Sequence record: OR352948.1
DNA: 64,000 bases
Origin: Escherichia phage AV118
Strand: one strand, 5' to 3'
Part shown: positions 1 to 10,095 of the stretch, in pieces
How positions within the stretch are numbered: position 1 is the first letter of the stretch
How the letters are laid out: each line of letters opens with the position of its first letter
Notes under the pieces: model-generated
Told to the model about the DNA's origin: nothing
Seen by the model: the letters and a program-made list of their open reading frames with translations, nothing else
The model's database searches: none
Made by a program: the position numbers and the translations under genes

Positions 1-325
1 TTGTGAACACATCATGGTTTTGGCAAAGACGAATATAATCCTGTTCATAAACGTCAAGAACCGAGTCCGCATCTTGTCGAATACGTCCGTAAACCCAGTT
101 ACTAATATATCCACGGTCTAACAGATAAATCTTAGTAGGGTCTAAATAATTCAACATCGTTTCGAAACAGCCAACTTCATTTCGAGACTTAACATCGAAA
201 CGTCCATCAACTGTTCGTTTAGGGAAATCAATCTTTACATATCTTTCACTAATTTCCATTATGTCATTAATGAAAGTTGTTTTACCAGCATTATCCGGTC
301 CATCTACTAAAATAATTTTAGCCAT
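1..325 (-). CDS. P-loop nucleoside/nucleotide kinase-like protein (N-terminal part; gene runs off window edge)
   Basis: Manual minus-strand translation from ATG 325..323: MAKIILVDGPDNAGKTT (Walker A) ... LLDRGYISNWVYG (DRY-like kinase motif); truncated at position 1. Confidence 0.5.
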   Translation of the reverse strand, partial: MAKIILVDGPDNAGKTTFINDIMEISERYVKIDFPKRTVDGRFDVKSRNEVGCFETMLNYLDPTKIYLLDRGYISNWVYGRIRQDADSVLDVYEQDYIRLCQNHDVFT

Positions 326-326
326 T

Positions 327-1226
327 TTATTCCTCGATTACGACATCTTCATATTTAGGTATATTATATGGTGAAGAAATTAAAGCATTAAAGTAGATGA
401 ACTCACCAAGACCTGGATGAAATACTTCTTCAGGATTTTCGAAATATTGAATCTTCGGACGTCCTTTAAGAATTTGATAGTACTCGGTTTTAGTTGGTTT
501 AAAAATTCGAATCAACGCTTCTTCAGGATACTTATTTCTGTCAAAGCTATTATTTGGATCTGTTATATAAAGCGGTTGACCTAATTGAATTGCGCATTCA
601 ACAACTTGTTCAAAACGATAGCATGGGTCACTAATTCGAAATGGATGAAAAATACCATCTAGATTAATAGGAGCCAAATCACCTACAAGACGCTGCATGA
701 TGGAAGGACGTATAACTTTCTGCGTTACGATAATCTTATTACCATCTGCACCTGCGTTAACCAGCACTTCTTTTTGACGTTCATTCAACACAGTTGTTTG
801 GATTGAACGATTAACCGACAATATGTCGGTTTTTAAGAATTCGTCAATATAAAAACGTGGTTTATTAGGGTCTGCGGTGATATTGAAATTGAATTCTACA
901 TCAAAAGCGCCGTCATATCCAGTGATATCTGTGATTAGAAAATCACAATCATAATAAGCAATTAATGAATCAACCACAAATTCATTTTCAGACCAGAAAT
1001 ATTTACGAGTGTTATACGCGTTATCTTTATACCATAATGGAACAAACTTAAATTCTGGAAAAAGACGTTCGCATTCTTTAATATCAGATGCATTACGTGG
1101 ATATGTAATCACATCACCCGGATTAGCACGGTGCAAATGAAGTTGGAAGTTGCCATCCTTAAGGATAGCATACTGTCCAGTTTCATAAGACCGCATACTC
1201 AAGATAGGTACGCGGAAAATAGCCAT
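327..1226 (-). CDS. hypothetical protein at the T4 beta-glucosyltransferase position (candidate DNA-sugar transferase, unproven)
   Basis: 299-aa ORF, ATG start overlapping gp42 stop (TAATG); no motif I can assign with confidence; possible DxD-like DCD near residue 93. Confidence 0.5.
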   Translation of the reverse strand: MAIFRVPILSMRSYETGQYAILKDGNFQLHLHRANPGDVITYPRNASDIKECERLFPEFKFVPLWYKDNAYNTRKYFWSENEFVVDSLIAYYDCDFLITDITGYDGAFDVEFNFNITADPNKPRFYIDEFLKTDILSVNRSIQTTVLNERQKEVLVNAGADGNKIIVTQKVIRPSIMQRLVGDLAPINLDGIFHPFRISDPCYRFEQVVECAIQLGQPLYITDPNNSFDRNKYPEEALIRIFKPTKTEYYQILKGRPKIQYFENPEEVFHPGLGEFIYFNALISSPYNIPKYEDVVIEE

Positions 1227-1942
1227 TAGTCAAGGAATCCTTTAACATAATCAAAATCACGTTCAAACACATGGGCACTTACCATGGTATGAGTATAATC
1301 ACCAACTTCTACACCACATTCGTTAGCGATATAATGAAGTAATTTTCCTTGGAGATAAAAATCCAACTGCATAACAACAGCACAGTTCTGAGAACGCATA
1401 TGACAGTGGGTATAAAGCTTACCATCACGAATATAATAAGTCACTGAGTCAGTACATGGATATTCAAGCGTTTCGTCTGAATCAAGCAAAGCCTGATCAG
1501 AACTTTCTAGAATTTGGAACACAACTCTTCGGGAGTTAGGCTTCTCTTTAAGTTCTTTTAGAAGAGCTGGTAATTGAGCCGCAATGCGAGGACCATAGAA
1601 AGTGTTGAAGTTCGCCGGCAAAACATCTGATTTTGGTTTAGAAATAAATTTAGCGACATTAGGATATGCCTTAAACGCTTCTTCTGCATTGGTACCACCA
1701 GAAATCATAAACTTCCAGAAGTCTTCGGCATATTCATAAGAGATGCGGTTAATACGTGGGTCGGTCATTTTGAATGTCGATGGAGTGTCAACAACTACTG
1801 TCATAGACCCAATTTCATTACAACGTCCAATACGAGAATCAGTTACGAATTCCGGGTTTTCTAAAATTTCACGATTGACTGCTTTAAATGCGGCTTGAAA
1901 ATCTGCGGCTTTGATATATTTCATTGTGTTATGTTTTCCCAT
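1226..1942 (-). CDS. 42: dCMP hydroxymethylase
   Basis: 238-aa ORF, thymidylate-synthase-like core with PCTDS catalytic-Cys region; size and position as T4 gp42; SD GAGGTAAAC before ATG. Confidence 0.8.
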   Translation of the reverse strand: MGKHNTMKYIKAADFQAAFKAVNREILENPEFVTDSRIGRCNEIGSMTVVVDTPSTFKMTDPRINRISYEYAEDFWKFMISGGTNAEEAFKAYPNVAKFISKPKSDVLPANFNTFYGPRIAAQLPALLKELKEKPNSRRVVFQILESSDQALLDSDETLEYPCTDSVTYYIRDGKLYTHCHMRSQNCAVVMQLDFYLQGKLLHYIANECGVEVGDYTHTMVSAHVFERDFDYVKGFLD

Positions 1943-2124
1943 GTTTACCTCAATACAATTTATTATATACTCAATTTGTAAAGCTTATTTGAATTTCTTG
2001 ACAATGTTGATATAACGTAAAGCTTCAGCATCGATACTTCCAAGAACACTATGAAGAAATGCGTCAGCGTAGTATTCCAATTGAACAGGTTTCTTTAATC
2101 ACTTTAGCCGCTTTAGTTTTAAAC

Positions 2125-2145
2125 AGGCCCATCAGGGCCTTTTTA
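2125..2145. terminator. GC-rich hairpin AGGCCC-ATCA-GGGCCT followed by T5 (orientation ambiguous)
   Basis: Inverted repeat plus T-run read directly; lies between gp42 and the 391-aa gene. Confidence 0.3.
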
Positions 2146-2221
2146 AGAATTTGTTCGTTAGTGTTCAGTTTAATAGTCAAAATCTCTTCGTTAAGTTTAT
2201 AATTAAAAGTTTTTCTAGAAA

Positions 2222-3397
2222 TCATTCCGGGTACCTCAAAGCGTCATCAGAGTTAGTTATATCAATAATAGATATAGAGTTTTCTGCTAACCCGTTTTTA
2301 GATAATTGACGTTTATAATATCTTTCACAATATGTACACGTCGTCCCGCAGATTTCATTAGCACAATCGAAATCTGGATGTCTGAACCACCTTTTTTCTA
2401 AAAAGCCATCTAACAAAGAGGTTTCAATATTTACTGTATGTGAAAACTCAGTTTCGTTTTCAAGAGTGAAAATGGTCTCTAAAGGCTTCCACAGTTCTAA
2501 CAAATTACCTTCAAACTTTTCAGAAGCGTATGCTTCAAGAACTTTCAAAATGTAGTCTGTGCTACCTGTACGTCCTGAAACTTTGAATTGAGTGATACCA
2601 ATATCATTATAAAGTTTCAAATCTTGAGGACGAACAAAACGAGTTCTCAACCAGTTAAATGGGTCTGTATCACGAGCTTTAATACAGTGCTGCATAGGAT
2701 ATCCGTTTAAGGATTTAGCATCATCAGCTGTAACATCAGTACTATGGAAAATATAGCAAGAGTCACGATAGCTACAATGTGTTGTATACCCTTTACCAGC
2801 ATTAGAACAGAACTCATTTACAAGAACTTCAAATATTATATTGTTCTTATTGCAAAACTCTGCTGCACGCTTCAGGAAAGAAACTGAACGGTTCTTATGA
2901 ATTCCACAGCAGACCTTTTTGATATTATATTGGTCATGCAAGTATTTGATTTGAGTTACAGCATCGACATGTAGAATTGTTGAAACTTCAATCTCAATGT
3001 CTTTATTGACTTCACGAACAATTTCCATAACAACAGGGTTAGCGATAGTAATACGCCATACGCCTATTGACCAAAGATACTGAACATAATCCTGAATAGC
3101 TTTCTTCTTCCACTCAACTAGTTCTCTTTTTGAACCAGGATTTATCGTGTTGAGTGTATAGTTAAAGCAAATACCTAATTCGTTACAACGTTTAACGTAA
3201 TCTTCTAACATCTTTTTGTCAACGTCAGGAAGCCTAAAATCAGGTCTGGCTGCTACAAAAGCCATTTCTCTTGTAGAGCCGTATACTTCGTTTATCAAGC
3301 TATTAGGATAAGTTTTATTGAGCTCTACGATTTTATCAAGAAGAGCTAAATCAAAATTCGTTCCAATTTTAAAAGTATTCATTTTTTTGCATCTCAC
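2222..3397 (-). CDS. Cys-rich protein of unknown function (weak peptidase-U32-like / Fe-S enzyme resemblance)
   Basis: 391-aa ORF; Cys cluster FCSNAGKGYTTHCSYRDSC and C-terminal CANEICGTTCTYC; start may be internal Met (MNTFKIG). Confidence 0.6.
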   Translation of the reverse strand: MRCKKMNTFKIGTNFDLALLDKIVELNKTYPNSLINEVYGSTREMAFVAARPDFRLPDVDKKMLEDYVKRCNELGICFNYTLNTINPGSKRELVEWKKKAIQDYVQYLWSIGVWRITIANPVVMEIVREVNKDIEIEVSTILHVDAVTQIKYLHDQYNIKKVCCGIHKNRSVSFLKRAAEFCNKNNIIFEVLVNEFCSNAGKGYTTHCSYRDSCYIFHSTDVTADDAKSLNGYPMQHCIKARDTDPFNWLRTRFVRPQDLKLYNDIGITQFKVSGRTGSTDYILKVLEAYASEKFEGNLLELWKPLETIFTLENETEFSHTVNIETSLLDGFLEKRWFRHPDFDCANEICGTTCTYCERYYKRQLSKNGLAENSISIIDITNSDDALRYPE

Positions 3398-3438
3398 GTT
3401 AATTGATGCGATGGTTTTTGCAGGTCTTACTTAAATTA

Positions 3439-3840
3439 TTATAGATTCGGTTTATATGATTTAAATGTTTCGAATTCGCCTTTATTCATAAGAGCTTTGA
3501 ATTCGTCAGGACGCATAGCTTTGTCGTCGATAATCCAATCATATACTGGTTTATGTGTTAGCAAATTATGGTACTTCAAACCAATGTTTTCCAAGTTCTG
3601 AATCAGACTTGGGAGAATGTCAATTGCTATACGTCCAGGACCTACTGACTTCATACCGCGAGCAGTGTAAAGCGTTATGGTATGCCCTGCATCATACAGG
3701 GCATTAATGGCAGACACCATTTCGACGTCTGGTTTGAAGTTCACGTAATCACGATTGTTATTCCACTCTGTTATACAATCATCGACATCAAAACAAAGAT
3801 TAAGCATGTTTTCTACACGGTGCATTAGATTCGTTCCCAT
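3439..3840 (-). CDS. HAD-superfamily phosphatase-like protein (putative sugar-phosphate phosphatase)
   Basis: 133-aa ORF; N-terminal FDVDDCIT (DxD motif I-like), LYTARG, HKP, IIDD motifs in HAD order. Confidence 0.55.
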   Translation of the reverse strand: MGTNLMHRVENMLNLCFDVDDCITEWNNNRDYVNFKPDVEMVSAINALYDAGHTITLYTARGMKSVGPGRIAIDILPSLIQNLENIGLKYHNLLTHKPVYDWIIDDKAMRPDEFKALMNKGEFETFKSYKPNL

Positions 3841-5510
3841 TGATGAGTGATATCGCCACCGATTGGACGATAGGAAACACCAGTTTCTTTATCAGTTAGT
3901 ACCCATTTACCAGGATTTTTTGTAATCAGAGTAGCCGTTACAGGTTCTGCTACGTCATAACTAATAGAGCCGTCTTGAAGTACACGGCCCATATTACGTA
4001 ATTGCTTAGTCAGAAGTTCCATACCTTTATAATATGCGGCTACCGCTTTAAGTGGATTATTCTTGAAATAACCACCTAATGCAATCCAGATAATTGCCAC
4101 TGCCAAATGATGATACTCGTTAAACGAACTCATCTTTCCATATTTGTAAACTAATGGATTGATGTTAATAGTCACATTACAAGTTGTTTCATCAATAGTA
4201 AACTGTCCCCAGGTCGGATTAGCATTGAATTCATCATAACCTGAAACAGCATAAAGCACTTTAGCTTCATCATACAATTTTGGCCCGTAAATCTTGGTTT
4301 CGCCAAAATATCCACGAGGGTCGATAAACTTGACTTCGCCGTTATCAGTAATCATAGTATTACTGAAGTTCGGGTCACCATGAATAACAGAGTACTGTCC
4401 CTGAGAACGGTTATGATAACGAATAAGGTGTTCTAAAGCTTGTTTCAGCATTGGCTTCAGACGTCCAATCTTAGTGTAGTTCACATGTGTGATTTTACCA
4501 AATGAATCAATCAATGGTTGAATGCTTTCACAACGATCAATAACTTTCGTATAGAATTCTTTAGTGAAATCACGACGAACAGTTTCAGGACTTACAAAAT
4601 AAGTGTCTGTGCTGAATTTCAGTGCATCTAAAATTGCATCAACAATTTGTGGACGAGCAAGACTTGATTTGGATTTAATATATTCAAATGCCGGCTTACC
4701 TTTAATGCGTTCCATTTCAAAGTTATTTTCATTAACAGAAACTAACTGAGGAACTGAATCTGATTTCACTTTCAAATACCACGAAATCTCATCTTTCTGA
4801 AGAGCTCGACCCTGTTCGGTTAATGCGAATTTAGTTACAGTTTCTTCACCAATTTCAACTGCATTAAAACTACGATTAAGTTCACGAACTTCATGAGCCT
4901 TTTCAAGTTTAGGCATATCACCAAGGTCGATGATATTCATAAGCTCTGATTTATTGAATGCGCCACTGTAAAGGAATTCTACGAAATCACGTCCTTTGCA
5001 GTATTCATGAATTTCCTCATCAGTAGAACCCATATAGAATTCCCAGTCTTTGAACTGATAAATTCCTACAACATTACCACCTGTTGAACCTACGTTAGTG
5101 ATATTTTCACCGTCGAAATTATATCGACATTCGTCACCCTTAACATAGATTGCATTAACATTCCAAGACCATGAACCAAAATCGGGAATAATATCACACC
5201 AGTTAACAATTACGTTATGGCCGTCTAAATCTTTGTGTAATTTAGCAAGAGCATAAGCAGAACCATACGCTTCATCAACTGTACGAATAGTCACATTGAA
5301 CCCTTCTTGCTCACAATAAGCTCGAACAGTTTCAGCAAATTTTGAATGAACTACTACAATAATTTCATCTGCGCCAAGGTCAGAATAAATTGTATACAAA
5401 TTGCTCAGAATAGTGTCTTGTTTATAGTTAACAAGCACCTTAGGAATATGATGCGTTATTGGATACAAACGAGTTGCCAGTCCAGCACCAAGAATAACAG
5501 CTTTTTTCAT
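3825..5510 (-). CDS. bifunctional sugar-1-phosphate nucleotidyltransferase / sugar kinase (APH-like kinase domain)
   Basis: 561 aa; N-term ILGAGLATRLYPIT..PK (GxGTRLxPxT NTase signature); C-term VIHGDPNFSN...FIDPRG (Brenner kinase motif); SD GAGGA 7 nt upstream. Confidence 0.8.
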   Translation of the reverse strand: MKKAVILGAGLATRLYPITHHIPKVLVNYKQDTILSNLYTIYSDLGADEIIVVVHSKFAETVRAYCEQEGFNVTIRTVDEAYGSAYALAKLHKDLDGHNVIVNWCDIIPDFGSWSWNVNAIYVKGDECRYNFDGENITNVGSTGGNVVGIYQFKDWEFYMGSTDEEIHEYCKGRDFVEFLYSGAFNKSELMNIIDLGDMPKLEKAHEVRELNRSFNAVEIGEETVTKFALTEQGRALQKDEISWYLKVKSDSVPQLVSVNENNFEMERIKGKPAFEYIKSKSSLARPQIVDAILDALKFSTDTYFVSPETVRRDFTKEFYTKVIDRCESIQPLIDSFGKITHVNYTKIGRLKPMLKQALEHLIRYHNRSQGQYSVIHGDPNFSNTMITDNGEVKFIDPRGYFGETKIYGPKLYDEAKVLYAVSGYDEFNANPTWGQFTIDETTCNVTININPLVYKYGKMSSFNEYHHLAVAIIWIALGGYFKNNPLKAVAAYYKGMELLTKQLRNMGRVLQDGSISYDVAEPVTATLITKNPGKWVLTDKETGVSYRPIGGDITHQWERI

Positions 5511-5551
5511 GTTGAAGTCCTCATTGGTAAGTAGGAGTATTGTACACTATT

Positions 5552-5695
5552 CTAGTTAAAGCATTCATACTTTGCTTGTAGTCCAATCATAATCCATCCA
5601 ATTACAAGTGTTGGAATCATTACCGGAGCCGTTAAGCTCCAGTAGATAGTCATGACAAGCATCAATAGTAAAAGTCCTATTGTTATTGCTTTCAT
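5552..5695 (-). CDS. small hydrophobic membrane protein (47 aa)
   Basis: Manual translation MKAITIGLLLLMLVMTIYWSLTAPVMIPTLVIGWIMIGLQAKYECFN; ATGA start/stop overlap with upstream SIS gene; below ORF-track size cutoff. Confidence 0.35.
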   Translation of the reverse strand: MKAITIGLLLLMLVMTIYWSLTAPVMIPTLVIGWIMIGLQAKYECFN

Positions 5696-6327
5696 TGTTC
5701 GCCTCGTAACATGGCACCTAGTGCACCGCCTGGATGGAACTTAAGGAAATCATTAGAGGTAAATCCACGTTCAGACGAAAGGTTGATAGCAAACGTATCG
5801 ATAAGCGCTAACAACAATGTAGTGGACATTGTCGGAGCTAAAGAGTTCTCGTCAACTTCTACCGCGATACCAGTACAGAACGTATAATCAAAAAGAGCTT
5901 CGTATTCTTGTGGAATGTCAGGGTTACAATGTAACAGAATCTGTTTAACCTGAGGACGAATCATACGAAGATGTTTAGCAACACCTATCATTTCTTCAGT
6001 CTTACCAGAACGACTGATGTGAACTAATACATCATTAGGTGCAATAAATCCTGCGTCACCATGAGAATAATGCCCAGTGTTCAAGTACATACTTGGGATA
6101 CCGAGTGAAGCAAAAGTCTCGGAAGCTTTAGTTGCGATATTAGCGTTCTTACCAACACCTGTAATAATTACCCGGCTTTCATAATTACTAAGTCCAGGGC
6201 GTCGAAGAGTTTCTAGAATAGCGTTATAACGAGCAGGGTTTTGACTAATTACTTTAGCCATAGTGGCAAGAGATGAAGCTTGTTTTACGATTGCGTCAAT
6301 AGCGATAGTGATTGGTGTAGTTTTCAT
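5692..6327 (-). CDS. SIS-domain sugar-phosphate isomerase, KdsD/GutQ-like arabinose-5-phosphate isomerase
   Basis: 211 aa; ITGVGKNANIATKASETFASLGIPS, SHGD, ISRSGKT, LAPTMSTT, HPGGALG motifs match KdsD SIS domain. Confidence 0.8.
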   Translation of the reverse strand: MKTTPITIAIDAIVKQASSLATMAKVISQNPARYNAILETLRRPGLSNYESRVIITGVGKNANIATKASETFASLGIPSMYLNTGHYSHGDAGFIAPNDVLVHISRSGKTEEMIGVAKHLRMIRPQVKQILLHCNPDIPQEYEALFDYTFCTGIAVEVDENSLAPTMSTTLLLALIDTFAINLSSERGFTSNDFLKFHPGGALGAMLRGEQ

Positions 6328-6367
6328 ATTTCTCTCATTTAATTAGTTGGCCGTCCTTGGCATTATA

Positions 6368-9079
6368 TCAAAAATCAAACATATCGAACAGAGATGCTTT
6401 CTTCTCGTAATCGAGTTTAGCTGCTGATGTGAATCCTTCAAGTGGTTTAATAAATGTCTTCTCAAGGAGAACAGTGTAGTCCATCCAATGAAGTACATCG
6501 TCTTTAATTAAATCTGTGATTTCAGTACCAGAAGGCCATGCGATACATTTATCACCGAATGGGTTTCCTTCACGTAAAGGCAGAACATATACTTTTTCAC
6601 CTTCTACAACTTGCGGTGCATCGATATTACCTTTGATAGCCCGGTTATACGTCAGAATTCCACGAATATGGAACGGGCATTTAGGACCAGGGAATCCACC
6701 GACATCATATTTAGCAATGTTATTCGCAGAAGATACCGACGCGATGCTAATATAATTCAATTGACGGAATTCTTTTTCAAACTCTTTAAAATATTCTTGT
6801 AATGATTCTTCACCTTCTTGAAGCATACGACGAATACATTCTTTAAGAGCTTTCTGTACTGCTTTAGGGGTCGAAGATTTCTGAGTCTCTAGACCCATGA
6901 TTTTGAGTTTAGGCTCAGCGTAACGAGTGCCTTCCATATCCCACACGTTTAATGCATAACGTTTCTTACCAGTCCAGAATCCACCAATACCTTTAGAACC
7001 GAGCGGAGGACCAGCGATAGCTTCTCGGTCCATGAACATTAAGTGTTGTTTATTGTTCATGTATTCACACATTTCACGGAAACCTCTATCAATAGCTGGT
7101 TCCATACGTTCACGTGCAAACTTATCTAAGAAGTCTACCCAATGGTTGGTATCACGGAATTTAGATTCACCAACCTTATCGATAATTTTATCAGCAGATA
7201 CGTAAATAGAGTCTGTATCACCATAAAGAACGAAAGCTTTACCTTCTGTACCACAAACTTCATTCAGATATTCATTAACTTTACGTTCAATCCACTGTAA
7301 AGCCATTTGCCCGAATGTTGTGATTGCAGTAGCATTACGCAAATCATAATAACGGAACCAAACGTTGCCAAGTGCACCATAAAGTGAGTTGATAAGCAAT
7401 TTACGGTTAATTTGTGCAGTCATACCTGCAACTTCAGTACGTTGAGCTCTAAACAACATTTCATTAAGAGATTTAGCAGACAACTTTTTAATCTTTTCTT
7501 TAATCTCATCACTGAAGTCGAAACGATAATCAACATCTAATGGTTCGTCAATAGAAAGATTAGGATTATGCAATGCCTCTTTAATTATTTCACCATTACG
7601 TTGAGCTGCAAGCATGTAACCTTTATGTTCTTTACGTTGATTAAAGACCTTAGTGATTTCAGTTGGAACTACACCATCACGGTCTTTATAATACATCATG
7701 CCGTTAGGAGAGCAACTGTACACATCTGAAGGACGTTCAGCGATTGCGTTAATATAATCATGCAATGGAGCTACTTTAAACGTTCCTGCTATTGTTTCCG
7801 GGCTAATATTCACTTGGCGAATAATACTTGGATACAGAGATGTAAGGTCGAAACTCATTACATATTTGTATCGATTTGGAATAGGTTCCTTAACAAAAGC
7901 GCCAGGATAAGGTTGAACCGGGTGAGAACGACCTTGTGGAATCACCTTGTTTTGTTCTTTAAGGCTATTAAAAATAATAGCATCCCAAGTTTTAATTGGA
8001 CTGAACACAGATTGAATCTGAATTTTAGCATAATAACCCATGTCCAAGCTCAAGTTGATGAACTGACGCTTAGAATCAATTTGCAATACACGATACACGT
8101 CGATAATGTTATAAGAAATATATCGTTGGTGATTGCTTTCACGAAGCTTAGAAATAGGGCCGTCATATTTCAGTTTACCAACGTTCAATTCAAATTCTGA
8201 AATGTAATCCAGAGAATACGACGGTTGATTGGTAAAAGAGAATTTTTTGTAAAGGTCAATGTAATCAAGAACAGAGATACCGAACAATGTAATGATTTCA
8301 CGAGAACCATACATGTTTTCGATAACTTTAACACGAGTTTTACGATGTGGCGATAAACGTTTCGCAGTAGATTCGCCAAAAATATTCTTGATTCGGTTAT
8401 ACACATATGGAATATCAAATGACTCAACGTTCCATCCGGTTAAAATGACAGGAGTTTTCTGTTGCCAGAAATTGAGATATTCCATCAATAATTCTTTTTC
8501 ATTATCAAACGGCATATAAACAATTTTGTCGATAATTTCGGATGGAACTTCATCACCACCTTGTTCTTGAAGCTTAGCCGCAATTTCGATAGACCATTCT
8601 TCTACATTGCCGTATGGAGAATTCAAAAGGTCAAATACGTAGAACCTGTCGTCAATTGAGTCATAATGGGTGATAGCATCAATCGGATGTTTTGCTTGTG
8701 ACGGCTCAGGGAACCCGTCCGGAGATGTTACTTCGATGTCGAAGTTAGCCACACGAATTTTTGTATGGTCGTATTTGATTTCATAGTTATAAGTGTCAGA
8801 CAAATACGCCAATTTGAAATCGTCCATGCCAAGTGCTTCAAGTCCGATATCTTCCATGCGTTTAATCCATTGGGAGGCATCACGCATATTAGCGAACAAC
8901 TTACGAGTACACGGCTTACCGTAGATATCGAAATATTTCGTAGCCTGACTTTCCGGACAATGAGCAAACAGTGATGGTTTATATTCTACTTCACGAGTAC
9001 GTTCACGGCCATTAGAATCGATGTAACGTTCAAAAATTGAATCACCAATCTGTTCAACCGTTAAGTAAAATTCTTTCAT
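6368..9079 (-). CDS. 43: DNA polymerase (family B, T4/RB69-type)
   Basis: 903-aa ORF; exonuclease FDIE, polymerase motifs DLTSLYPSII, KILINSLYG, YGDTDS; SD AAGGAAA upstream. Confidence 0.97.
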   Translation of the reverse strand: MKEFYLTVEQIGDSIFERYIDSNGRERTREVEYKPSLFAHCPESQATKYFDIYGKPCTRKLFANMRDASQWIKRMEDIGLEALGMDDFKLAYLSDTYNYEIKYDHTKIRVANFDIEVTSPDGFPEPSQAKHPIDAITHYDSIDDRFYVFDLLNSPYGNVEEWSIEIAAKLQEQGGDEVPSEIIDKIVYMPFDNEKELLMEYLNFWQQKTPVILTGWNVESFDIPYVYNRIKNIFGESTAKRLSPHRKTRVKVIENMYGSREIITLFGISVLDYIDLYKKFSFTNQPSYSLDYISEFELNVGKLKYDGPISKLRESNHQRYISYNIIDVYRVLQIDSKRQFINLSLDMGYYAKIQIQSVFSPIKTWDAIIFNSLKEQNKVIPQGRSHPVQPYPGAFVKEPIPNRYKYVMSFDLTSLYPSIIRQVNISPETIAGTFKVAPLHDYINAIAERPSDVYSCSPNGMMYYKDRDGVVPTEITKVFNQRKEHKGYMLAAQRNGEIIKEALHNPNLSIDEPLDVDYRFDFSDEIKEKIKKLSAKSLNEMLFRAQRTEVAGMTAQINRKLLINSLYGALGNVWFRYYDLRNATAITTFGQMALQWIERKVNEYLNEVCGTEGKAFVLYGDTDSIYVSADKIIDKVGESKFRDTNHWVDFLDKFARERMEPAIDRGFREMCEYMNNKQHLMFMDREAIAGPPLGSKGIGGFWTGKKRYALNVWDMEGTRYAEPKLKIMGLETQKSSTPKAVQKALKECIRRMLQEGEESLQEYFKEFEKEFRQLNYISIASVSSANNIAKYDVGGFPGPKCPFHIRGILTYNRAIKGNIDAPQVVEGEKVYVLPLREGNPFGDKCIAWPSGTEITDLIKDDVLHWMDYTVLLEKTFIKPLEGFTSAAKLDYEKKASLFDMFDF

Positions 9080-9137
9080 TTAATTTCCTTTAGACGAGTT
9101 ATTGTCTTTTGTTTGTTGATGAACTTATTATACTCCA

Positions 9138-9157
9138 AATGGGACCGAAGTCCCATT
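9138..9157 (-). promoter_or_regulatory. stable hairpin (8-bp stem, UUCG loop on mRNA) upstream of gene 43; candidate translational operator/RNA element
   Basis: AATGGGAC-CGAA-GTCCCATT inverted repeat in regA-43 intergenic region. Confidence 0.35.
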
Positions 9158-9160
9158 GCT

Positions 9161-9529
9161 TTAATTACCAATTGTATATTTTGCTTTCAAAGTCCAGTCA
9201 TCTTTCTGTTTAAAAGAGATAACACGGAAGTTATTAGTAAGGCCAAATAGATCTTCACGAGCAGAGTCTTCAATAACAATCAATCCCCAGTCTTCAAGCA
9301 ACTGGGCAATCGAATCACGTCGCTGATAGTCTTCACCGTCAATATCAACCTGACGTCCATCCATACGCAGCATTTCTTTAAAGTGGACGATGTAGTATTT
9401 ACCTTGCTTTTGGAGGATATGACAGGACTGATAAAGGACTTTATCCTTGTTATTAGCGATGCCCATACGGGTCAGAGTCTCTTTGACTTTCAGAAAATCT
9501 TCAGGGTTCTTCAATTTAATTTCAATCAT
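9161..9529 (-). CDS. regA: translational repressor RegA
   Basis: 122 aa from ATG 9529 (MIEIKLK...); sequence and position between gp62 and gp43 as in T4. Confidence 0.9.
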   Translation of the reverse strand: MIEIKLKNPEDFLKVKETLTRMGIANNKDKVLYQSCHILQKQGKYYIVHFKEMLRMDGRQVDIDGEDYQRRDSIAQLLEDWGLIVIEDSAREDLFGLTNNFRVISFKQKDDWTLKAKYTIGN

Positions 9530-9531
9530 TT

Positions 9532-10095
9532 TTACCATTCCAATGCTAATTTTTTAAATTGTTTTTGTTCTTTCACATTTTTTGTAACTTCTTTGAGAAA
9601 CTCATCAGTGACCATGGCCTTCAGTTCTTTAAGGACTATTGGCAGCTTGTTATTTTTTTCAAGGAGCCGTTTATACTCGGTGGCATCATTCATGTTGATT
9701 GTGTAATGTTTCATCAACAATTTGATAACTAGTAACTCTGAAGTGTCTTCGACTAGTTTAGCCCATTTAGAGAATCGTCGGCCACGTGGAATTGCCGCCA
9801 TCATATAGTTGAAGTGCGCTTCATCACTTAATTCAGAACCGACTAAGTTCATCATGTAAACAGCTGGCATACATTCCTGGAACTGGGATAATGAGTTCTC
9901 AACCATAAATTTTGAGTAGTCGACCTGAGCAATTGACATAGATTTCTTTTCATTAATAGCATTAATGATTTTAAAGAATTCGTTCTCAGGTTTTTCTTTA
10001 AACATGTCAGCACATTTTTGAATCGCATCAGCGTCATTAGACTTCCATGCAATTTGGTGCTCGTTAAGTTGGACGTCATCATCAAATAAGTTCAT
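9532..10095 (-). CDS. 62: clamp loader small subunit
   Basis: 187-aa ORF directly downstream of gp44; size/synteny of T4 gp62. Confidence 0.85.

Follow-up and report, generated by a model that had tools for sequence, protein, structure and literature searches.

Organization of the cytosine-arabinosylation cluster

The window analysed here is the whole 64,000-nucleotide (nt) stretch of Escherichia phage AV118 (sequence record OR352948.1), in which every gene between positions 1 and 9079 lies on the minus strand, and we looked specifically at a protein of 299 amino acids (aa) encoded at 327-1226, the map position at which phage T4 carries its beta-glucosyltransferase (beta-gt). Positions 1-6327 are the cytosine-arabinosylation gene cluster of an RB69-like (Mosigvirus) phage, and the 299-aa protein, a predicted glycosyltransferase (GT) of the GT-B fold, is very probably the first arabinosyltransferase of the pathway. 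The gene is already known, its RB69 copy gp46:47 being part of a pathway published in 2025-2026; what is new here are the natural fusions of the GT with a kinase in both orders and the co-occurrence of the GT and kinase genes. The initial annotation, whose coordinates were all correct, had pointed to a protein at the beta-gt position followed by a P-loop kinase-like gene cut by the window edge, and both points are borne out by the T4 order (uvsX, segA, beta-gt, 42, imm, imm.1, 43) and by the 108 of 182 kinase codons that are present. The genes of the cluster are as follows.

1-325, minus strand: probable thymidylate-kinase-fold P-loop nucleotide kinase, truncated; first 108 of 182 codons, ATG at 325-323, cut by the window edge
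327-1226, minus strand: predicted 299-aa compact GT-B glycosyltransferase, putative first arabinofuranosyltransferase; from the list of open reading frames (ORFs), ortholog of RB69 gp46:47
1226-1942, minus strand: 238-aa thymidylate synthase (TS) homolog, predicted 5-hydroxy-dCMP synthase type; Pfam Thymidylat_synt E 2e-15, ortholog of RB69 gp48
2064-2225, minus strand: small ORF of 53 aa between the TS homolog and the U32 gene
2222-3397, minus strand: Peptidase_U32-family protein; Pfam U32 E 7.5e-11, PHROG 5757, ortholog of RB69p050
3439-3840, minus strand: small HAD-like phosphatase, AfhF-like; PHROG 1238 E 3e-43, ortholog of RB69 gp51
3825-5510, minus strand: 561-aa putative bifunctional enzyme, AfhE-like; Pfam NTP_transferase E 8e-10, weak APH/kinase-family matches at residues 308-409, ortholog of RB69 gp52:53
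5692-6327, minus strand: SIS-domain arabinose-5-phosphate isomerase, so annotated in JK42 and AV109; Pfam SIS E 8e-10, ortholog of RB69 gp55

The first 6 kilobases (kb) share 98-99% nucleotide identity with more than 150 Mosigvirus genomes, e.g. AV109, JK42 and APCEc01, the records of which follow the order uvsX, kinase, 299-aa gene, TS homolog, small ORF, U32 protein, small HAD protein, 561-aa bifunctional protein, small ORF, arabinose-5-phosphate isomerase and DNA polymerase (43), and the gene order of the window agrees with that of RB69, JK42 and HY126. The start codon of the 299-aa ORF overlaps the stop codon of the TS homolog by one base (TAATG), its own stop is separated from the kinase start by 1 nt, and Shine-Dalgarno-like sequences precede the starts of both the 299-aa and the kinase gene. 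Nothing substantive sets the window apart from the RB69 gp46:47 family, of which it carries another isolate's copy, intact and not split. The genes at 327-1226 and 3825-5510 are both whole here and are split in the RB69 reference NC_004928 (46/47 and 52/53); these splits are single-base sequencing errors (PMC6024577, PMC13326640), and pipelines copying the RB69 annotation will spread them.

A compact GT-B fold without a sequence-defined family

The 299-aa protein found no match in Pfam at E<=0.1, none in NCBIfam and none among PDB sequences at E<=10, either as a single sequence by phmmer or as a 72-sequence profile, and the earlier description of a protein without recognisable motifs is accurate at this level. 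It corresponds to PHROG 3891 (E 2e-155), listed there as of unknown function, and with 138 homologs found the family was counted as a real conserved gene. As there is no profile-detectable link to any GT family of CAZy or Pfam, its identity as a transferase rests on structure.

The AlphaFold2 model built on the family alignment, with a mean predicted local distance difference test (pLDDT) of 95.6 and a predicted template modelling score (pTM) of 0.90, comprises two Rossmann-like beta/alpha/beta domains with a cleft between them and a C-terminal helix that crosses back. Foldseek with this model returned MshA (3c4q) as the top match, the remainder being GT-B transferases and UDP-GlcNAc 2-epimerases. 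The structure prediction that the initial annotation had proposed for a GT-A or GT-B fold hence came out as GT-B, and by this model the protein is a member of the GT-B fold class that belongs to no sequence-defined GT family and is, at 299 aa, unusually small for a GT-B enzyme. The GT4-type enzymes compared with it (sucrose-phosphate synthase 6kih, BshA 6n1x, MshA 3c4q and PimA 2gej) have 340-500 aa and share only 7-12% identity with it, and the 299-aa protein lacks a Pfam match to Glycos_transf_1 or to the GT4 N-terminal domain. These enzymes act on a sugar, lipid or thiol precursor, whereas the acceptor of the 299-aa protein would be a modified nucleobase. As the structurally closest enzymes are of the retaining GT4 type, the mechanism is probably a retaining one.

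Across the 72 sequences of the family, whose identity goes down to 36%, 25 residues are invariant, and in each of the two domains of the AlphaFold2 model these lie at strand C-termini and helix N-termini. The family also has a conserved motif, H270-P271-G272 followed by E/D275. As the invariant residues occupy Rossmann ligand-binding positions, we assign a nucleoside diphosphate (NDP)-sugar site to R197, K246 and H270-P271-G272 of the C-terminal Rossmann domain, which probably form it together; these roles were read from the secondary-structure position in the model only.

Three other identities were considered and do not fit. A diverged beta-gt is rejected on BLASTP, in which the 299-aa protein matched T4 beta-gt at E 1.6. 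Membership of the sequence families CAZy GT4 or Pfam Glycos_transf_1 fails on the absence of both a profile match and an EX7E motif, and a sugar-1-phosphate nucleotidyltransferase, for which an NTP_transferase (GT-A-like) fold with the G-x-G-t-R-l signature would be expected, on the GT-B fold and on top structural matches that include no nucleotidyltransferase.

Orthologs and distribution of the transferase

The protein is orthologous to RB69 gp46:47, DLP3 gp79, HY126 XAN60474 (98% identity) and TH1_063 of Shewanella phage Thanatos (48%; L006:5460-6362), the last being a true ortholog with neighbours that are likewise alike; other Mosigvirus copies are 97.7-100% identical and Acinetobacter phage homologs about 46%. 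Lee et al. (NAR 2026) named RB69 gp46:47 as putative arabinosyltransferase 1 (PMC13326640), and the fold-search matches obtained here, 3c4q and 6kih, are the same as those given there. In the published proposal arabinosyltransferase 1 installs the base-proximal arabinose and others lengthen the chain, and Thanatos, described as mono-arabinosylated, reportedly has this GT only (PMC13326640).

By tblastn, the 299-aa family was detected in 348 of 50,697 phage records, including those of Escherichia (176), Acinetobacter (57), Klebsiella (26), Shigella (15), Serratia (14), Enterobacter (9), Proteus (7), Yersinia (6) and other phages. The second transferase of RB69, a gp3-like GT whose gene lies some 20 kb off, between rIIA and topoisomerase, is confined to Mosigvirus and Acinetobacter phages (211 records, with two copies in the latter), and about 140 records, among them phages of Klebsiella, Serratia, Proteus and Yersinia and of Dhakavirus type, have the 299-aa GT and the kinase without it. 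This distribution marks the 299-aa enzyme as the universal transferase and the gp3-like enzymes as add-ons, and the absence, one copy or two copies of the gp3-like GT fit the one, two and three arabinoses reported. The gp3-like GT has 366 aa and a solved structure (HY126 ortholog, PDB 9iqz and 9ir0), unlike the 299-aa protein. The Aat transferase of Bas46, the deletion of which is viable and altered only defence sensitivity, is presumably a gp3-like enzyme.

The adjoining TS homolog and the acceptor base

The gene next to the 299-aa gene had been called gp42 in the initial annotation, of which the adjoining position stands and the identity does not. The encoded 238-aa TS homolog is 25% identical to T4 gp42 and matches PDB 9iqc, 9ir2 and 9iqu at E 2e-160 over all 238 residues. 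Aligned with E. coli ThyA, T4 gp42 and two distant homologs, the TS homolog carries Asn in place of ThyA D169, which T4 gp42 keeps as Asp, and Asp in place of N177. RB69 gp48 and DLP3 gp80 are flavin/O2-dependent synthases of 5-hydroxydeoxycytidine monophosphate (5-hydroxy-dCMP, 5hodCMP), for which D169N is diagnostic (PMC13326640). Judged from its sequence, the TS homolog is thus of the 5-hydroxy-dCMP synthase type and not a T4-type dCMP hydroxymethylase, and D169N along with the match to 9iqc indicates that the acceptor is 5-hydroxycytosine (5hoC), not 5-hydroxymethylcytosine (hmC). The DNA of RB69 carries beta-D-Araf-(1-3)-alpha-D-Araf (Araf, arabinofuranose) ether-linked to cytosine C5 with no methylene bridge, as determined by nuclear magnetic resonance and mass spectrometry (PMC13326640), and 'arabinosyl-hmC', as assigned earlier (PMC6024577), is no longer considered correct. 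The TS homolog and gp159, a gp1-type kinase of RB69 that phosphorylates 5hodCMP to the diphosphate 5hodCDP, suffice for 5hoC in E. coli DNA (PMC13326640).

The D169N TS homolog adjoins the transferase gene, and the genes for UDP-D-arabinofuranose (UDP-Araf), encoding the SIS, NTP_transferase/kinase and HAD proteins, lie within 6.3 kb. The suggestion that the 299-aa protein is the missing DNA glycosyl or pentosyl transferase is supported by the GT-B fold, the orthology and the cluster; the chemistry differs from the one supposed, the acceptor being 5hoC rather than hmC. As the TS homolog is of the 5-hydroxylating type and hmC would not be made, the hmC-DNA assay suggested at that time has the wrong acceptor. 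T4 beta-gt (GT63) shares the map position with the 299-aa protein without sequence similarity, and while T4 beta-gt and alpha-gt (GT63 and GT72) place glucose onto hmC, the pathway of the 299-aa protein concerns arabinofuranose and 5hoC.

The truncated kinase and its fusions with the transferase

The kinase ORF starts at 325 on the minus strand, begins MAKIILVDGPDNAGKTT and runs for 108 codons inside the window; the gene could be completed, as had been proposed, from the near-identical phage AV109, in which the full kinase has 182 aa. Its orthologs are RB69p045, DLP3 gp78 and Thanatos TH1_064. The fragment contains a Walker A loop and an LLDRGY motif, both invariant in the family, and the features of a thymidylate-kinase-like protein are found, namely the Walker A P-loop, a DR(Y/H/F)-type motif after strand 3 and the thymidylate-kinase fold. 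The curated thresholds of PF02223 and TIGR00041 were not reached, the window and AV109 proteins giving weak AAA/TK matches only; the kinase scored 16 bits against TIGR00041 (cutoff 83), and the orthologs reached 24 bits against a cutoff of 27. The kinase family occurs in 343 phage records as compared with 348 for the transferase, with practically the same genus breakdown. The truncated gene probably encodes a thymidylate-kinase-fold nucleoside monophosphate kinase that acts in the nucleotide branch for modified cytosine, in tight coupling with the transferase.

Natural fusions came to light in the search of 1.84 billion cluster representatives with the 72-sequence profile, and 260 family sequences were examined for them. 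Eight of the 260 have an N-terminal KdsC-like HAD phosphatase domain ahead of the GT domain, and another count of eight in 260 applies to fusion with a P-loop kinase domain, which follows the GT in seven and precedes it in one (P0230). The fused kinase domain is homologous to the window kinase family (hhalign probability 95.5%, E 1.4e-8, 135 columns). Through the HAD fusions the transferase is linked to the sugar branch, and through the kinase fusions, which come in two orientations, to the nucleotide branch.

Most fusion proteins lie on contigs of 1.7-3.2 kb, and the informative one is L010, a 36.8-kb phage contig on which the GT-kinase fusion is followed by an SIS isomerase, a bifunctional enzyme, an HAD phosphatase and a U32 protein that matches the U32 protein of the window at E 1e-110. 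The 16 kb examined of L010 contained no detectable TS homolog; the TS gene may sit elsewhere on the contig, or hydroxylation may differ there. A distant version of the whole cluster was observed on L004, a 356-kb metagenomic contig of jumbo-phage size, where positions 796-9682 encode an SIS protein, an APH-domain protein of 522 aa, an HAD protein, a D169N TS homolog of 346 aa, a 200-aa protein of unknown function, a GT of 381 aa and a thymidylate-kinase-like kinase of 185 aa. The pathway hence reaches well beyond T4-like phages.

Proposed pathway and the level of glycosylation

In the pathway that we propose, the TS homolog would hydroxylate dCMP to 5-hydroxy-dCMP, which the gp1-type kinase (gp159) would phosphorylate, while the isomerase, the 561-aa enzyme and the HAD phosphatase would supply UDP-Araf, all of them steps that others have shown for the orthologs. 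The 299-aa GT-B enzyme would bind this donor in its C-terminal Rossmann domain and move the first, base-proximal alpha-D-arabinofuranose onto O5 of 5hoC, the acceptor being taken as 5hoC in newly replicated DNA, after which the gp3-like second transferase would add the beta-linked second arabinose. DNA was chosen as the acceptor on the precedent of all known phage DNA glycosylation. The narrower claim, that the 299-aa protein is the first arabinosyltransferase, can be made with high confidence, and the eight N-terminal HAD-GT fusions among its relatives support its link to the sugar branch; for the complete statement, that this GT-B enzyme uses UDP-Araf to form an alpha-arabinofuranosyl ether at O5 of 5hoC in DNA, we estimate a probability of about 0.5.

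Several observations weigh against this proposal. The profile search of the 1.84 billion representatives returned 228 proteins, all of the family itself, and the glutamate pair of the GT4-type EX7E motif is not invariant in the family alignment. The protein is acidic, with an isoelectric point of 5.06 (family median 5.2) against 9.05 for T4 beta-gt, although net charge and isoelectric point as indicators of DNA binding are too weak to settle the acceptor. Purified DLP3 gp79 did not arabinosylate 5hoC-DNA when given UDP-Araf or its pyranose counterpart UDP-Arap (data not shown in PMC13326640), and TH1_063, reported to make UDP-xylose, transferred no xylose to plasmid DNA, dCMP, dCTP or cytosine (PMC12838424). 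No positive assay of transferase activity for the 299-aa family was found in the accessible literature. The work of He et al. (Nat Chem Biol 2026) reportedly has the HY126 cluster as its subject. Lastly, the kinase fusions and the action of gp159 on 5hodCMP fit an acceptor at the nucleotide level at least as well as one at the DNA level.

Such an acceptor would be free 5-hydroxy-dCMP, used by the same enzyme with the same donor, whereupon the kinase of the cluster, as a dedicated enzyme, would phosphorylate the bulky 5-O-arabinosyl-dCMP, the polymerase would use the glycosylated dCTP and the second arabinose alone would be added on DNA. We consider this possible, if doubtful. The overlapping and abutting genes run from TS to GT to kinase, which is the order of these steps, and the GT and kinase co-occur nearly perfectly and are fused in both orders in eight cluster representatives; but fusions can mean a complex or co-expression, and the HAD-GT fusions join steps that are not consecutive. 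With the 5hodCMP step already done by gp159, the second kinase is left without a step of its own. The inactivity of DLP3 gp79 on 5hoC-DNA points the same way, mononucleotide acceptors not being among the reported tests, and Lee et al. state that they could not tell the DNA level from the nucleotide level (PMC13326640); that negative result is unpublished data, however, and could be explained by an inactive protein or a missing partner. Bare 5hoC has not been reported in virion DNA despite the single first transferase, and the acidity of the family is in keeping with this reading, charge being weak evidence. On the other side, all phage DNA glycosylations characterised so far take place after replication, DLP3 receives its third arabinose on DNA (PMC13326640) and the acceptance of arabinosyl-dCTP by the polymerase is purely assumed. 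The acceptor may already have been shown by He et al. 2026. The transferase-kinase fusions sharpen two questions, namely the level, DNA or nucleotide, at which the first sugar is attached and the role of the second kinase, and if the nucleotide-acceptor route is true, it would be the first pre-replicative nucleotide glycosylation in any virus.

It is improbable that the 299-aa protein is a later-acting GT or a non-catalytic partner and that the gp3-like GT (9iqz) adds the first arabinose. The sole HY126 transferase with a deposited structure is the gp3-like 366-aa protein, which hints at biochemical tractability, DLP3 gp76 and gp77 are active only as a pair (PMC13326640) and the 299-aa family lacks the canonical EX7E motif. 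However, the approximately 140 phages that have the 299-aa GT and kinase but no gp3-like GT would then possess no first transferase, and the 25 invariant residues, placed where strands end and helices begin in the two Rossmann domains, speak for a catalytic protein. The viable deletion of Aat, presumably gp3-like, is a further point against this reading.

Weaker still is the reading of the protein as a UDP-pentose pyrophosphorylase, making UDP-sugar from UTP and pentose-1-phosphate, which we regard as very improbable even though His-tagged TH1_063, a true ortholog with 48% identity and common neighbours, formed, in a mixture with UTP, xylose-1-phosphate and pyrophosphatase, a product matching UDP-xylose in mass and fragmentation while the no-enzyme control was negative (PMC12838424), since that control leaves a co-purified E. 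coli UDP-sugar pyrophosphorylase possible, the natural sugar is not xylose, a canonical NTP_transferase domain is already supplied by the 561-aa protein of the cluster, the HY126 ortholog of which is reported as a UDP-arabinose pyrophosphorylase, and the activity is hard to square with the GT-B fold. On the grounds of the predicted fold, the same assignment is unlikely for TH1_063 itself. As Thanatos TH1_060, the protein with the NTP_transferase domain, was reported inactive (PMC12838424), the TH1_063 and TH1_060 assignments conflict with the fold and with the AfhE data of HY126, which suggests that a contaminant or a sample swap deserves re-examination.

Significance of the modification

A large group of T4-like phages, in which there are many candidates for therapy against E. 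coli, Klebsiella and Acinetobacter, is shielded by arabinosylated 5-hydroxycytosine from restriction enzymes, several types of CRISPR-Cas and DNA glycosylases. The gene of the transferase was labelled 'hypothetical protein' in nearly all phage records inspected, one Acinetobacter phage record bearing the label 'glycosyltransferase' in the corresponding region. As almost all of the roughly 350 public phage genomes still list the universal transferase as a 'hypothetical protein', this annotation should be corrected.

The sugar branch and other genes of the cluster

The SIS isomerase is the first step of the sugar branch. Orthologs of the isomerase, the bifunctional enzyme and the HAD phosphatase lead from ribulose-5-phosphate to UDP-D-arabinofuranose (PMC13326640), and the same paper, citing He et al., gives the role of the AfhF-like HAD protein as the conversion of arabinofuranose-1,5-bisphosphate to Araf-1-phosphate. 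The 561-aa protein putatively combines a sugar-1-phosphate nucleotidyltransferase domain with a kinase domain and makes UDP-arabinofuranose; its HY126 ortholog has reported UDP-arabinose pyrophosphorylase activity (PMC13326640), and the assignment as a bifunctional enzyme is further drawn from PMC6024577.

The U32 protein is conserved in the cluster, and in Thanatos it corresponds to TH1_065, directly after the kinase. It has a C-terminal Cys cluster, CANEICGTTCTYC, and close relatives of the gene at 2222-3397 are annotated with a start 17 nt downstream. The U32 proteins include the O2-independent hydroxylases UbiU/UbiV, TrhP, which forms ho5U in tRNA, and RlhA, which forms ho5C in 23S rRNA. 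In view of these hydroxylases among its relatives, the U32 protein of the cluster could make 5-hydroxycytosine anaerobically, as a backup to the O2-dependent TS homolog. Lee et al. label it only as a 'sugar or heterocycle reductase' (PMC13326640).

The small ORF at 2064-2225 has 53 aa in the window, as against about 79 aa annotated in JK42 and AV109 and about 40 aa in HY126, and is a variable or decaying gene within an otherwise 98-99% conserved cluster.

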